In this document: positions 25,024 to 29,584 of the stretch, piece by piece | Layout: every line of letters starts with the position of its first letter | Position numbering within the stretch: the first letter of the stretch is position 1 | DNA from: a virus | Lineage: Duplodnaviria > Heunggongvirae > Uroviricota > Caudoviricetes | Direction: 5' to 3' (one strand) | Virus record (IMG/VR): IMGVR_UViG_2537561934_000015 | DNA: 29,584 nucleotides | The notes under the pieces: generated by a model | The model's input: only the letters and a program-made list of their open reading frames with translations | Databases searched by the model: none | Told to the model about the DNA's origin: nothing | Position numbers and translations under genes: made by a program

Positions 25024-26046
25024 TTAATACGCATTTAATTTAAATTTGTATTTGCCTTCTATGTAATGGATAAATTCAATTATGCTTTTTTCTATCGCAT
25101 CTAATATATGAATATATCCATCCCGATTTAAGGTCCTATCCAACTCAAAGTGATGAACTATCCCATGTCTATATTGTATGATTTCAGAAATTCGATTCTC
25201 AAGAAAATCAACTGATTTTCCAATTCTTTTTTTCTTATAAAGAATCGCTCTCACATCTATATCCAGCCACTCTTTATATGCTTTGTTTAGGTGGGTTAAG
25301 TTTTGAAAAGTGTAATTTCTTGCAATAACACTTTCTATTGAAATATTTCCTTTCTCTATCTCAAGCAGAATATCAAAATCAACTTTTTGCTTATACGATG
25401 TTCTTTTTGCTATTGCGAAAGGATCGTACTTTATAAGTATTTGAAAAGCTCTAGAGAAAAAGTATTCAAACATAGCAACCGCAAAAGGTACTAATCCATT
25501 ATATATAACTCTACTGGGATCCATACATTGCATGTAATCAAAGTATTCGGATAAGCCGCCATCTTCCGGTAGGTTTAATTTAATAGAAGGTTCAGGTAAG
25601 GCATGTTTAACAGCGGAAATCTCATGATGGACATGATTAAATATTGAAGAAATGCCACGACTGATCGGACTACTAGAATCCTTCCATAGAGGAGCGTACC
25701 TATTTTTCCCATAATCACCTATAAGTGTTCCACCAAAAAGACTCCTTGCGCCTTTTAGAACATCATTAAGCATTTTTACATCATGCCAACTAGCGCTATA
25801 TAAATTACGCACATGCAATGCCCATTTATTACCAGATATGTGTAATTCGTCATTTGAAACAGGATATATATCAGCCGAAACTCCATCTGTAGATTTGAAG
25901 TCCGTATCATCAAACCAAGAGTAATTCAACGTTCCTTGGGGCCATTCCCACAAATGTTTACACCTTTTAAAACCTAAATTTTCAAGGTAATTTTTAAGTT
26001 CGTTTCTAGTTGCTTTTTTAGGGTACAGCGTTATATCTCTTCCCAT
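25024..26046 (-). CDS. Hypothetical 340-aa protein, AT-rich cargo gene inserted between D and ogr; C-terminal HEPN-like R-x4-H motif
   Basis: Long ORF with AGGTGA ribosome-binding site, visibly AT-rich against GC-rich structural genes, and on the opposite strand to its neighbours. C-terminal region ...ENRISEIIQYRHGIVHHFELD... contains R-x4-H. Confidence 0.7.
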   Translation of the reverse strand: MGRDITLYPKKATRNELKNYLENLGFKRCKHLWEWPQGTLNYSWFDDTDFKSTDGVSADIYPVSNDELHISGNKWALHVRNLYSASWHDVKMLNDVLKGARSLFGGTLIGDYGKNRYAPLWKDSSSPISRGISSIFNHVHHEISAVKHALPEPSIKLNLPEDGGLSEYFDYMQCMDPSRVIYNGLVPFAVAMFEYFFSRAFQILIKYDPFAIAKRTSYKQKVDFDILLEIEKGNISIESVIARNYTFQNLTHLNKAYKEWLDIDVRAILYKKKRIGKSVDFLENRISEIIQYRHGIVHHFELDRTLNRDGYIHILDAIEKSIIEFIHYIEGKYKFKLNAY

Positions 26047-26237: not shown

Positions 26238-26498
26238 ATGTTCCGTTGTCCACTTTGTGGCGCATCTGCCCGTATCCGCACTAGTCGTCCGGAAAATGAT
26301 TCAAACACTGTGCGGCAAAAGTATTACCAATGTAACAACCTAGAATGCGGCGTATGCTTCTCAACACTGGAAGCTTTCCATAAATTCACATCGAAACACG
26401 CCTCCGGCGCTCACTCTTCAGAAGGTATCCCGTGGCATGAACTGCCAGCTTCACACAAAGGAAACAATCAGATGAGTTTGCCCTTACCTCAAAATTAA
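26238..26498 (+). CDS. ogr: Ogr/Delta-type zinc-finger late transcription activator
   Basis: MFRCPLCGASARIRTSR...YYQCNNLECGVCF matches recalled P2 Ogr (MFHCPLC...ARTSR...YHQCQNVNCSATF). Ribosome-binding site AAGGGAGG. Confidence 0.85.
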   Translation: MFRCPLCGASARIRTSRPENDSNTVRQKYYQCNNLECGVCFSTLEAFHKFTSKHASGAHSSEGIPWHELPASHKGNNQMSLPLPQN

Positions 26499-26588
26499 CA
26501 GGCAGAATTGCCGGAGTAACAAAAAAGAGATAGATTACGCGCGGGTGCCTTTCGGCTGATGGTCGGAGGGAATACCTGAAGGCCAGAT

Positions 26589-26822
26589 GTGGAAAGGCCC
26601 CGGAAAACATTTCTGTTTAACCGAGGCCCTAACCGCATTACCTTGACAAGTGAAAGGTTAGCGCCTCTCCGGAAAAGGAGCAAGTGCTATGTCGCAAAAA
26701 TCGCTTACGGCTATCACGTTCTGCGTGACGGTAATCCTCATCATCTGGATGTTGCACGGTTCGCTGTGCGAAATACGGATGAGTTTCTGGGGAGCGGAGT
26801 TTGCGGCGTTCTTACAGTGTAA
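26589..26822 (+). CDS. mok-like overlapping leader ORF of the hok-type locus
   Basis: 77-aa ORF in a different frame, starting upstream of the hok-like ORF and overlapping almost all of it, as in hok/mok loci. Confidence 0.4.
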   Translation: MERPRKTFLFNRGPNRITLTSERLAPLRKRSKCYVAKIAYGYHVLRDGNPHHLDVARFAVRNTDEFLGSGVCGVLTV

Positions 26823-26829
26823 GCAGTAA
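26689..26829 (+). CDS. Hok/Gef-family type I toxin (46 aa)
   Basis: ATG 26689 with AAAGGAG at 26674-26680. Product MSQKSLTAITFCVTVILIIWMLHGSLCEIRMSFWGAEFAAFLQCKQ has the Hok TM helix plus SLCEIR and AAF motifs (compare Hok ...[24 protein letters not shown]). Confidence 0.7.
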   Translation: MSQKSLTAITFCVTVILIIWMLHGSLCEIRMSFWGAEFAAFLQCKQ

Positions 26830-26838
26830 GGAAACCGC

Positions 26839-26860
26839 GACGGGGGAGTAATCCCCCGTC
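26839..26860 (+). terminator. 3' stem-loop after the hok-like ORF
   Basis: GACGGGGGA-GTAA-TCCCCCGTC, 10 nt after the stop, with no clear T-run. Confidence 0.4.
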
Positions 26861-27090
26861 AATCGGTTGCCAGGGTAAGGTCGATAAGGCACCCTATCTC
26901 ACGGCTCTAAATGCAAAAATTCCATGAAACTGTGGGATTTTTGCATCACTACTGATACAGATCTGCCCTTCTATATGTCTCACTCTATACCAGCTAATCA
27001 ATTGACACTTATCAATAAAAAAAAATCTGATAAAATCAAAATGTTTTGTAACAAATATCAACTCGTATTGATCCAAAGGAGGCGGATTAC

Positions 27091-27423
27091 ATGGCATTAA
27101 TCAAATGTCCTGAATGCCAGAAAGAGGTGAGCGATTCAGCATTGTATTGCCCTGCTTGCGGTAAACAAATAAAAAAACTTAAGCGTTCATTTTTTGGAAA
27201 GCTCATTAAGTGGATATTTATATTATTTAATATTTTTATGATCTATACGCTTTTAGTTGGACTGGGAGGCACTAGTGAAATAATAAATAATGCTACATCC
27301 GATGCCGAAAAAGCCGGTGCAGTTATTGGTACAGGCTTAGGTTTAATTACCATTGGAAGTTTATGGGTTATTGGCGATATCATTATCGGAATTTTAGTAT
27401 TTCTTACTAAACCAAAAGGATAA
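27091..27423 (+). CDS. Zinc-ribbon membrane protein (110 aa)
   Basis: CPEC...CPAC zinc ribbon at the N-terminus, then two hydrophobic helices. Ribosome-binding site AGGAGG. AT-rich. Confidence 0.6.
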   Translation: MALIKCPECQKEVSDSALYCPACGKQIKKLKRSFFGKLIKWIFILFNIFMIYTLLVGLGGTSEIINNATSDAEKAGAVIGTGLGLITIGSLWVIGDIIIGILVFLTKPKG

Positions 27424-27427
27424 CAAA

Positions 27428-28321
27428 ATGAAAAATATAATTTTTTCTATAGGTGCATCATTTATATCAATTAGTGTACTGCCTGTTCACGCAGCAACTG
27501 AACATAATAACTTCAATGCAGTACTCCAGTGCCGAGCAATAGAAAATAATAAAGACAGACTTTCTTGTTACGATAAGTCAATACAACCGACTCGAACGAA
27601 AGTTGCTGAAAAATTCGAAAGCAGAGATCAATGCCCTGATGAGAAAGATGATGACAGACGTTTATCTTGTTATGATCGTTTTTTTTCTCCAACATTTACT
27701 CCATCTGTAAACTCAAAATCTAAAACGGAAAAGCCAGTAACAACAGAGGCTCAGCAACCAAATCTTTCTGAGATATCTAAATGCCGAGCAGAAAATGATA
27801 AAGAAGCCAGACTAAACTGCTACGATAAACTATTCCCACAGGATAAAGCTGTTCAAGCTGAATCAAAATTAGAGAAAGCCACAGATGTAGGAAAATGGCA
27901 CACATCCATTACTACATCGCCAATTGATGATTCGAAAAATGTAATTTTATCGTTAGAAAGTGATGATTATATCAGAACTCCATTTGGAGAAGCGGTTACT
28001 CCCACTCTGTTTATAGCTTGCCGAGAAAAGAAAACCGAAGTATTTCTTAGTTGGGATGTATATTTAGGCCTTGAACAAACCAGCATGCTTTATCGTCTTG
28101 ATAAACAGAAAGCAGTTGAGCGAAACTGGCTAGTATCTACAGATACAAAGGCTGTTTTTTATAAAGGTAATGACATTGATTTCATCCGAAAACTAGCCAA
28201 CTCAAACAAAATGTATACAAAAATAACTCCTTATAATGAGAGCCCTGTAAGTGCAACTTTCAATTTAAACGGCCTGTCAAACGCGCTAAAACCACTTCAA
28301 GCTGCTTGTAACTGGAAATAG
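27428..28321 (+). CDS. Secreted repeat protein (297 aa) with signal peptide and three RL(S/N)CYD motifs
   Basis: N-terminal signal peptide MKNIIFSIGASFISISVLPVHA. Repeats DRLSCYDK, RRLSCYDR and ARLNCYDK, followed by a C-terminal domain. Starts 4 nt after the zinc-ribbon gene, so probably co-transcribed. Confidence 0.6.
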   Translation: MKNIIFSIGASFISISVLPVHAATEHNNFNAVLQCRAIENNKDRLSCYDKSIQPTRTKVAEKFESRDQCPDEKDDDRRLSCYDRFFSPTFTPSVNSKSKTEKPVTTEAQQPNLSEISKCRAENDKEARLNCYDKLFPQDKAVQAESKLEKATDVGKWHTSITTSPIDDSKNVILSLESDDYIRTPFGEAVTPTLFIACREKKTEVFLSWDVYLGLEQTSMLYRLDKQKAVERNWLVSTDTKAVFYKGNDIDFIRKLANSNKMYTKITPYNESPVSATFNLNGLSNALKPLQAACNWK

Positions 28322-28330
28322 CATAAATCA

Positions 28331-28392
28331 TGTGGCTTAGCCACAATCACAGATAACACAAAGCCCGTGAAAACGGGCTTTGTGTTATCTGT
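28331..28392. repeat. Two adjacent perfect palindromes/hairpins
   Basis: TGTGGCT-T-AGCCACA at 28331-28345. ACAGATAACACAAAGCCCG-TGAAAA-CGGGCTTTGTGTTATCTGT at 28349-28392 (19-bp arms). No T-run follows. Confidence 0.6.
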
Positions 28393-28588
28393 AACTCGAA
28401 AATGTGGTCACTACGTGGACACGTGCTGATATAAATCCTTTTATATCAATAAATTAAATCATCATTTTTTTCATCAACAAGGATTTTCACGTTTGTGTTA
28501 CCTGTATGAGACGAGAGTTAACCGGACAAGTGTGCCATAATCTCGCGGCCAGGCATACTTGCGAAGATTTCAGGTATAAGGATACGTA

Positions 28589-29584
28589 ATGATACAACCT
28601 ATTTCCGGCCCTCCTCCTGGGCAGCCACCAAGTCAGGGAGATAACCTGCCGTCTGGCGCGGGCAATCAGCCTTTATCCAGTCAGCAACGTACTTCGCTGG
28701 AAAGCTTAATGACGAAAGTGACCTCACTGACGCAACAGCAAAGAGCAGAACTGTGGGCGGGTATCAGGCACGATATTGGTCTGTCGGGAGATTCACCGCT
28801 GCTTTCGCGTCACTTCCCTGCCGCTGAACACAACCTGGCGCAACGTCTGCTGGCCGCGCAAAAAAGCCATTCTGCCCGCCAGCTTTTAGCGCAATTAGGG
28901 GAGTATTTACGTCTGGGGAATAATCGTCAGGCGGTCACGGATTATATCCGTCATAACTTTGGTCAGACGCCGCTGAATCAGCTCTCACCGGAGCAATTAA
29001 AAACCATTCTCACCCTGTTGCAGGAAGGGAAGATGGTTATTCCGCAACCGCAGCAGCGCGAGGCGACCGACCGTCCTTTATTACCGGCGGAGCACAATGC
29101 GCTCAAACAGCTGGTGACCAAACTTGCGGCGGCAACGGGGGAACCCAGCAAACAGATCTGGCAATCGATGCTGGAACTTTCCGGGGTGAAAGATGGCGAG
29201 TTAATTCCAGCGAAACTGTTTAACCATCTGGTGACCTGGCTGCAGGCGCGCCAGACGTTAAGCCAGCAAAATACGCCGACGCTGGAATCACTACAGATGG
29301 CGCTAAAACAACCTTTAGATGCCAGTGAATTGGCGGCGTTATCGGCATATATCCAGCAAAAATATGGCCTTTCTGCGCAATCATCGCTTTCTTCTGCCCA
29401 GGCCGAGGATATTCTTAATCAGCTTTATCAACGGCGGGTTAAAGGGATTGATCCGCGTGATATGCAACCGCTGCTTAATCCTTTTCCACCGATGATGGAC
29501 ACGTTGCAAAATATGGCAACGCGTCCCGCGCTGTGGATACTGTTAGTCGCGATTATCCTGATGCTGGTCTGGCTGGTTCGTTAG
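28589..29584 (+). CDS. Hypothetical Pro/Gln-rich protein with C-terminal transmembrane anchor (331 aa)
   Basis: ORF with AAGGA ribosome-binding site. N-terminus PPPGQPPSQG, Q/L-rich helical body, C-terminal hydrophobic helix ALWILLVAIILMLVWLV. Stop at the last base of the window. Typical enterobacterial composition. Confidence 0.6.
   Translation: MIQPISGPPPGQPPSQGDNLPSGAGNQPLSSQQRTSLESLMTKVTSLTQQQRAELWAGIRHDIGLSGDSPLLSRHFPAAEHNLAQRLLAAQKSHSARQLLAQLGEYLRLGNNRQAVTDYIRHNFGQTPLNQLSPEQLKTILTLLQEGKMVIPQPQQREATDRPLLPAEHNALKQLVTKLAAATGEPSKQIWQSMLELSGVKDGELIPAKLFNHLVTWLQARQTLSQQNTPTLESLQMALKQPLDASELAALSAYIQQKYGLSAQSSLSSAQAEDILNQLYQRRVKGIDPRDMQPLLNPFPPMMDTLQNMATRPALWILLVAIILMLVWLVR

Follow-up and report, generated by a model that had tools for sequence, protein, structure and literature searches.

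A probable hok/sok-type toxin-antitoxin cassette carried as cargo between ogr and attR of a P2-like prophage

Known hok/sok systems and how the cassette compares

For the hok/sok (parB) locus of plasmid R1, a mechanism has been described that includes the rearrangement of the mRNA from a tac/fbi to a tac/ucb pairing (PMC9841398), and for the hokW-sokW locus of the Stx2 prophage Sp5, the toxin, the antitoxin and a phage-release phenotype have been shown experimentally (PMC8621323). Here, we analysed a related locus in a 29,584-nucleotide (nt) stretch of viral DNA (IMG/VR record IMGVR_UViG_2537561934_000015, Caudoviricetes), the whole of which is called the window below. It had initially been proposed that a hok/mok-like type I toxin locus lies at 26589-26860, immediately right of the phage gene ogr, and our analysis upholds this original prediction at the level of the protein, of the RNA structure and of the comparison with relatives. 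We consider it very likely that the region is a complete hok/sok-type type I toxin-antitoxin (TA) cassette with R1-type RNA logic, carried as prophage cargo between ogr and attR. The whole cassette spans approximately 26508-26946; the interval first given was therefore placed on the right locus but was too narrow, as the promoter, 46 nt at the 5' end of the mRNA including tac, the fbi element and the terminator all fell outside it.

When compared with R1, the cassette shares the Pfam family of the toxin, the predicted locking of tac to fbi, the predicted alternative pairing of tac with ucb, a predicted mRNA of ~400 nt and a putative cis-antisense RNA with its -35 hexamer over the hok Shine-Dalgarno (SD) sequence and its 5' tail aimed at a hairpin loop. 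It differs in that Hok has 46 amino acids (aa) here and 52 in R1, in a leader that is ~27 nt shorter, and in having no start codon at the position of R1 mok; the sole start preceded by an SD sequence, at +45/+47, falls close to the 3' boundary of the Sok-complementary region. Relatives in the clade, moreover, have not conserved the overlapping frame, and the carrier is a prophage and not a plasmid. With respect to the chromosomal hokA-E genes of E. coli K-12, the toxin belongs to the same family without being a HokA orthologue, and the carrier here is a mobile prophage.

The Sp5 locus is, like ours, a prophage-borne hok/sok. Identity with the published hokW-sokW was ruled out by the Sp5 primers, which correspond to another peptide and another mRNA 5' end: HokW of Sp5 has 51 aa (MKQQKAM...DYESEK) and an mRNA starting with GGGTGCTTGAGGCTATCTGCC, whereas the peptide described here starts with MSQKSL and its mRNA with GGGTGCCTTTCGGCTG. 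RefSeq phage records name the protein 'MokW-like host killing', which is a propagated and misleading label and does not denote orthology.

The closest copies are found in other phages. The same cassette is present at 92.7-97.1% DNA identity in PhiR44_2, 500465-2, Shae_phiSM, P884B11, Chuche and P88, and in three of these (P88, NC_026014, where it is gp52; Gemsvirus 500465-2; PhiR44_2) it follows ogr and encodes an identical peptide. The P88 copy differs in that the DNA past fbi is unrelated and has its own terminator, the zinc-ribbon and TagO genes that follow the cassette in the window are absent, and the mok-like frame is broken.

At the protein level, 44,248 Hok homologues have been catalogued by Escalera-Maurer et al., who found hok to be enriched in prophages and present in 9.3% of Escherichia phages (bioRxiv 10.1101/2025.08.07.668861). 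In their Cluster 72, sequence 72_1621 is the window peptide with the change V15A, and the form found in Stx phages is 72_1589. The two were among the sequences cloned for toxicity testing; toxicity was seen for 42 of 45, and the three non-toxic sequences include neither of them (bioRxiv 10.1101/2025.08.07.668861). The preprint analysed the coding sequence (CDS) only, with Mok, Sok and the mRNA ends outside its analysis (bioRxiv 10.1101/2025.08.07.668861), whereas the RNA anatomy given here is our own prediction. A search of the literature for hok in P2-like phages or in P88 returned nothing specific. The identification is correct and ordinary, the cassette being already known, annotated and catalogued; its mildly new features are a mok frame that is not conserved and a hypervariable loop for Sok recognition.

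The Hok peptide and the hok mRNA

The hok CDS is located at 26689-26829 on the plus strand and is identical to that of RefSeq WP_000078920.1, the product of which is annotated as 'Hok/Gef family protein' and has the same sequence as our 46-aa peptide, MSQKSLTAITFCVTVILIIWMLHGSLCEIRMSFWGAEFAAFLQCKQ. Residues 7-44 match Pfam PF01848 (HOK_GEF) above its cut-off (E 3.7e-7; 30.1 bits, with gathering set at 22), and the peptide has the form of this toxin class, a single-helix membrane peptide of ~50 aa of the Hok/Gef family. The conserved residues C12, T14, L26, C27, E28, E37 and C44 are all present, with the same spacing as in the Hok logo, where the positions are C16, T18, L30, C31, E32 and E41, with C or Y at 48 (Escalera-Maurer et al., bioRxiv 10.1101/2025.08.07.668861). 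The Hok signature originally recognised in this 46-aa open reading frame (ORF) was therefore confirmed by the Pfam score and by the conserved residues, and the ORF is a real Hok gene.

For the comparative analysis, 120 IMG/VR loci, collected with an exact 5' DNA anchor, and two Salmonella loci were aligned, giving 60 unique mRNAs. Conservation of the short ORF had been proposed as a test of the locus, and an ORF of 46-48 aa is retained in 60 of the 60 unique variants, among which the dN/dS of hok is 0-0.34. Between the window and P88, hok has five differences, all of them synonymous, with the mok-like frame open in the window and broken in P88. Judged from these substitution patterns, hok is under purifying selection. 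Five loci (L025, L030, L045, L063 and L022) share the 5' leader and fbi, yet they encode clearly different Hok peptides, for example MTQIPLKTLLLCITAVAIIWILHTSPCELRFRFAGTEIAAFLLCNK. The toxin is less conserved here than the regulatory RNA framework.

The putative hok promoter is at 26508-26536 on the plus strand, with the -35 hexamer TTGCCG (26508-26513), a 17-nt spacer and the -10 hexamer TAGATT (26531-26536), and from these hexamers it appears to be weak. In 68 aligned variants, T1, A2, A4 and T6 of the -10 hexamer are invariant and the -35 positions are each 68-99% identical to the window, and the Stx-phage copy has kept TTGCCC and TAAATT despite its diverged flanks. The full-length mRNA is predicted to run from 26543 to 26946 on the plus strand (~400 nt), its +1 at G 26543 being placed from the spacing to the -10 hexamer and from the start of the match to Rfam family RF01794. 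The promoters and the terminator of the cassette were read by eye and then backed by conservation. The hok SD sequence, GGAG at 26677-26680 on the plus strand, is 8 nt 5' of the ATG and lies inside a small CUCC/GGAG hairpin.

A covariance-model search had been suggested as a check on the locus. RF01794 (sok) matches 26543-26702 over its full model (positions 1-157) with 48.3 bits and E 1.1e-9, in a 701-nt search run in E-value mode. As the match is on the hok strand and extends from the +1 of the mRNA to just beyond the hok ATG, this 'sok antitoxin' family is a model of the hok mRNA leader in sense orientation, and the strand of its match should not be taken as the strand of Sok. The minimum free energy (MFE) of 26543-26950 is -177 kcal/mol, compared with -130 +/- 6 kcal/mol for shuffled sequences (z = -7.9). 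With a cassette found in 1553 of 5426 complete E. coli genomes, at up to 7 places per genome, the E-value of the leader match and the z-score of the fold place the locus far beyond chance.

In the MFE structure of the full-length RNA, the first 15 nt are paired with the 3' end. The 5' element tac, GGGUGCCUUUCGG at 26543-26555 on the plus strand, forms a 13-bp helix with its 3' partner fbi, UCGAUAAGGCACCC at 26881-26894 on the same strand, and has a probability of being unpaired of 0.02. In the MFE structures of 59 of 59 variants, 7 or more of the 9 nt at the start are paired with the 3' end. Within fbi, GGCACCC is invariant, and changes in the adjoining pairs are confined to exchanges of G-C with G-U or of U-A with U-G (helices 1-3). 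The more distant copy of Salmonella diarizonae differs right after GGGUGCCUU, and a matching change on the fbi side was seen by eye.

The hairpin originally noted 3' of the hok stop codon was also recovered, at 26838-26861 on the plus strand (GACGGGGGA GUAA UCCCCCGUC), and compensatory changes are found in relatives at 4 of its 9 pairs (helix 16). At one pair, G-C is found in 38 sequences and A-U in 21; its neighbour is A-U in 39, C-G in 11 and G-C in 5. This hairpin was flagged as terminator-like by the consensus scan on the minus strand only. A different, terminator-like hairpin was seen in the fold at 26911-26946 on the plus strand (A5-UUCCA ... UGGGA-U5), and in the copies of P88 and Salmonella this position is taken, in unrelated sequence, by a clearer G+C hairpin with a T-run.

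When the 60 sequences were folded together with RNAalifold, the helix between the 5' and 3' ends, the Sok-target hairpin described below and the 3' hairpin were all recovered. In this consensus structure, 99.4% of the cells are paired, compared with 34-48% when the 3' partners are slid, and ten pairs show compensatory changes, compared with 4.3 +/- 1.2 in shuffles, a number that was reached by 0 of 500 shuffles.

Predicted antisense RNA, refolding and the mok-like frame

A search of the minus strand for a Sok-like promoter, proposed as a further check, gave a candidate promoter followed by a hairpin. The putative promoter is at 26655-26683 on the minus strand, with the -35 hexamer TTGCTC (26683-26678) overlapping the hok SD sequence, a 17-nt spacer and the -10 hexamer TAACCT (26660-26655), a layout that we take to match that of R1 Sok (TTGCGC-17-TATCCT). 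Every position of the -10 hexamer and the TTG of the -35 hexamer are at least 99% conserved, while neighbouring positions of the leader vary. The predicted Sok-like RNA would be ~58 nt long (26590-26647, minus strand, with the ends estimated), and would consist of a 19-nt 5' tail, a hairpin at 26628-26596 and UUUCC. It folds with -31.4 kcal/mol (z -4.65).

The Sok hairpin (26596-26628) occurs in two unrelated versions of the stem, and in 17 of 17 unique variants it is more stable in the antisense than in the sense orientation (mean -20.4 and -12.6 kcal/mol, respectively). This is due to G-U pairs of the antisense strand, which become C-A mismatches on the mRNA strand. The bias argues for selection on a transcript of the minus strand. 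A cis-encoded Sok, complementary to the leader and with a promoter and a terminator hairpin of its own, is therefore predicted from the sequence.

The RNA was folded in silico at four lengths, the full-length form and 3' truncations. When the 3' end is cut before fbi, nt 1-11 of tac pair with a ucb-like box, GAAAGGCCCC at 26592-26601 (+50 to +59) on the plus strand, which is nearly invariant among the 60 variants (entropy of 0.01 bits per column). In parallel, the probability of being unpaired rises from 0.05 in the full-length RNA to 0.44-0.55 in the truncated forms for the upstream start, AUGUG at +45 to +49. The truncated RNA also forms the Sok-target hairpin at 26623-26667 (+81 to +125) on the plus strand (GAGGC.CUAACC ... 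GGUUAG.GCCUC), and its loop, 26633-26650, opens from a probability of being unpaired of 0.19 to 0.59-0.66. Its stem has 11 pairs, with 100% of the cells paired and one-sided changes in 5 pairs. The refolding would thus be the rearrangement from tac/fbi to tac/ucb known from R1, as a prediction from the folded models.

In the mechanism that we propose by analogy with plasmid R1, the weak promoter would give a stable mRNA of ~400 nt in which tac is locked to fbi and both the upstream start codon and the Sok target are buried. Slow trimming from the 3' end would take fbi away and let tac re-pair with ucb, and this refolding would free the upstream start codon and build the hairpin of which the loop is the antisense landing site. 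The short and unstable Sok-like RNA, produced constitutively from the minus strand, would bind to this loop, and the mRNA would be silenced or destroyed, presumably through RNase III. When the supply of Sok stops, the 46-aa Hok would be made and would damage the inner membrane.

The loop is also where relatives differ the most. Nowhere in the cassette is a 10-nt stretch more variable than in the segment 26633-26646 (+91 to +104; 0.9-0.97 bits per column), which has 21 variants among the 60 sequences, several of them with 1-nt indels, and is both the loop of the predicted Sok-target hairpin and the complement of the Sok 5' tail. This could be due to selection for specificity of Sok for its own hok between cassettes residing in the same cell.

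The longer ORF that was said to overlap hok in another frame is present in the window. This mok-like ORF of 77 aa is at 26589-26822 on the plus strand, in the -1 frame relative to hok, which is the same relation as that of R1 mok, and it has a GTG start at +47 with AAGG upstream (26579-26582), both at least 99% conserved. How far the frame reaches is, however, variable within the clade. From +45/+47, the ORF of relatives runs to a stop at +73 to +130, at +229 or at +280, and an ORF that reaches the hok SD sequence is SD-preceded in 20 of the 60 unique variants, without an SD sequence in 4 and missing in 36. Neither P88 nor the 96.7%-identical prophage 500465-2 has such an ORF, and the breaks in relatives are 1-nt indels in the hypervariable segment +91 to +104.

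Several points weigh against reading the locus as a complete R1-type cassette. The best NCBIfam match of the peptide is the equivalog NF007290 (HokA), with 35.8 bits and E 6e-9 against a cut-off of 89, and the Hok subfamily model NF007279 gives 23.6 bits against a cut-off of 73; as the former score is far under the HokA cut-off, the peptide is a Hok without being a HokA orthologue. The RF01794 match, clear as its E-value is, stays under the gathering score of 59, and a scan of the whole window with Rfam at gathering scores gave no match. The consensus scan for promoters and terminators flagged neither the promoters nor the terminator of the cassette, because the hexamers do not satisfy its 4-of-6 rule and G-C pairs are too sparse in the terminator. 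The consensus structure that was tested for compensatory changes was derived from the same 60-sequence alignment, in which the tac side, lying within the first 20 nt that the anchor fixed, was unable to vary. We infer from the analysis the transcripts with their ends, their processing, the decay by RNase III, the toxicity of this exact peptide and the role. Finally, translation of mok up to the hok SD sequence is mandatory for the synthesis of Hok in R1 (PMC9841398), and that frame is missing in 36 of the 60 relatives.

The broken frames can mean either that the coupling step is different in this clade or that many copies are silent. The latter would make the locus a silent or decaying hok relic from which Hok is never translated, a situation reported for a number of hok loci on the chromosome of E. 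coli K-12, and both the mandatory role of mok in R1 and the weak consensus matches of the two promoters would agree with such decay. However, every element is intact in the window copy, including the long overlapping ORF, the RNA helices are maintained by compensatory changes, and the purifying selection on hok, with the ORF retained throughout the 60 variants, also holds between copies with an open and a broken mok frame. The one-residue variant of the peptide is not among the three non-toxic sequences of the preprint either. A relic is improbable, and the reading as a complete hok/sok-type cassette is preferred.

More tentatively, and with more doubt than confidence, it could be suggested that mok coupling is dispensable in this Hok clade and that the region recognised by Sok is under diversifying selection. 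If true, Sok would mainly trigger decay of the mRNA or block a short ORF upstream, and co-resident cassettes, with up to 7 matching places in one genome, would evolve mutually orthogonal pairs of Sok and target. The biology is that of textbooks; beyond it, the cassette bears only on how universal mok coupling is among hok loci.

Prophage location, distribution and possible roles

The position right of ogr was confirmed, as the cassette begins 10 bp past the stop codon of ogr (26238-26498; Pfam Ogr_Delta, E 5e-14). The original prediction left it open whether the locus was cargo at the prophage end or belonged to the flanking replicon, and of these the cargo holds and the flank does not. A 20-bp attR core, TTTTCATCAACAAGGATTTT at 28468-28487, lies 1.5 kb to the right, within the 5' end of pdxB, and marks the true right end of the prophage. 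Almost all E. coli genomes have pdxB and flk side by side, and the core is found once in the empty pdxB-flk site and at both ends of the prophage, at attL in strain 266917_2 (L004:3598-3617) and at attR in the window. At attL, the core adjoins pdxB and int; it overlaps the first codons of pdxB, and compared with the empty site, the annotated start of pdxB at attL is shifted 8 codons downstream. As attR is in pdxB and not at the P2 site, no P2 core is to be expected.

A match covering at least 80% of 26903-28700 was found in 237 of 5426 E. coli genomes, and the other genomes among the matches listed match the window only from ~28468. The only observation that would agree with a prophage ending at ogr, followed by host chromosome or a flanking replicon, is that homology to P88 and to most E. 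coli genomes ends at ~26902, between fbi and the terminator. This break is a module boundary within the phage and not the phage end. With the core duplicated at attL and attR, the empty sites matching only from ~28468 and the cassette present in the genomes of P88, a circular record, and of Stx phages, the flanking-replicon idea was refuted by the mapping of the att sites and can practically be dismissed.

The cassette is thus inside a P2-like prophage (P88 or Gemsvirus-like) that is integrated into the 5' end of pdxB, 1.5 kb left of attR, and the right end of this prophage is at pdxB (28487) and not at ogr. The same prophage is present in strain 266917_2, where the annotated gene order is pdxB, integrase, C/cox, replication genes, structural genes, gpD, a 340-aa ORF, ogr, Hok/Gef, a zinc-ribbon protein, TagO and flk. 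Lying between ogr and att here and being found also in P88 and in related phage records, the cassette has the position of a moron, and the right arm holds 2 kb of cargo.

Outside the P2-like phages, many Stx phages carry the cassette at ~81.5% identity, next to lom. The homology of these copies spans the -35 hexamer to just past fbi and ends there on both sides, which makes the cassette a discrete module of ~390 bp that is common to unrelated types of phage. In species-representative genomes, a degenerate pattern of the Hok C-terminus gave only 4 matches, two in Salmonella enterica and two in assemblies with Gram-positive names, and the clade of the cassette is narrow. Near-identical copies in L128, a metagenome-assembled genome of Planococcaceae, and in L130, a Vagococcus sp., are most likely due to contamination of the assemblies.

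In ten IMG/VR provirus contigs (L012, L020, L034, L048, L054, L056, L064, L073, L077 and L078), the anchor is found at 268-287 on the minus strand, which puts it 287 nt from the end of the sequence, the position of the hok stop codon. Where the end of the sequence is the end of the contig, the boundary was called so that fbi and the terminator are missing. In automated provirus calls, the cut is often placed exactly at the hok stop codon, with the result that features at the level of the RNA are lost from viral databases.

As for the role of the cassette, addiction, in which cells that lose the prophage are killed, is ranked first, although we would put it a little short of an even chance; it is followed by help with lysis at induction and then by defence through abortive infection, an order that is a matter of judgement and not of direct data. 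Help with lysis and phage release is possible but unlikely as the main job. In Sp5, the deletion of hokW-sokW halved phage release, and mitomycin C led to less sokW RNA and more HokW (PMC8621323). The cassette described here is also found in inducible phages such as P88 and, ~81% identical, near lom in Stx phages. On the other hand, HokW is another Hok, and its mRNA has a 5' end of its own, and in our analysis nothing links the expression of the cassette with induction.

In abortive infection, an invading phage would stop host transcription, Sok would decay and Hok would kill the cell before the invader matures. Phage defence is among the reported roles of hok/sok, P2-like prophages often have defence cargo in their variable regions, and the right arm holds other cargo genes that are unexplained. 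PADLOC, however, gave no match for Hok or its neighbours, and hok was not seen to be enriched near defence systems in the preprint (bioRxiv 10.1101/2025.08.07.668861). This role is the least likely of the three, with prophage addiction kept as the tentative first choice.

Two further cargo genes are located at 27091-28321, between hok and attR and within 26903-28700, and neither has a PADLOC match. The first encodes a zinc-ribbon protein of 110 aa, the C-terminal half of which looks hydrophobic, and the second a TagO protein of 297 aa with an N-terminus resembling a signal peptide, which matches the type VI secretion family VasI/TagO (Pfam E 2.6e-25). On the other side of ogr, next to gpD, the 340-aa ORF at 25024-26046 on the minus strand has no counterpart in P88 and no PADLOC match. 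It shows a weak, sub-threshold match to the RiboL-PSP HEPN domain (E 1.2e-4, 22.5 bits against 28.4) and may be a defence-type cargo gene.

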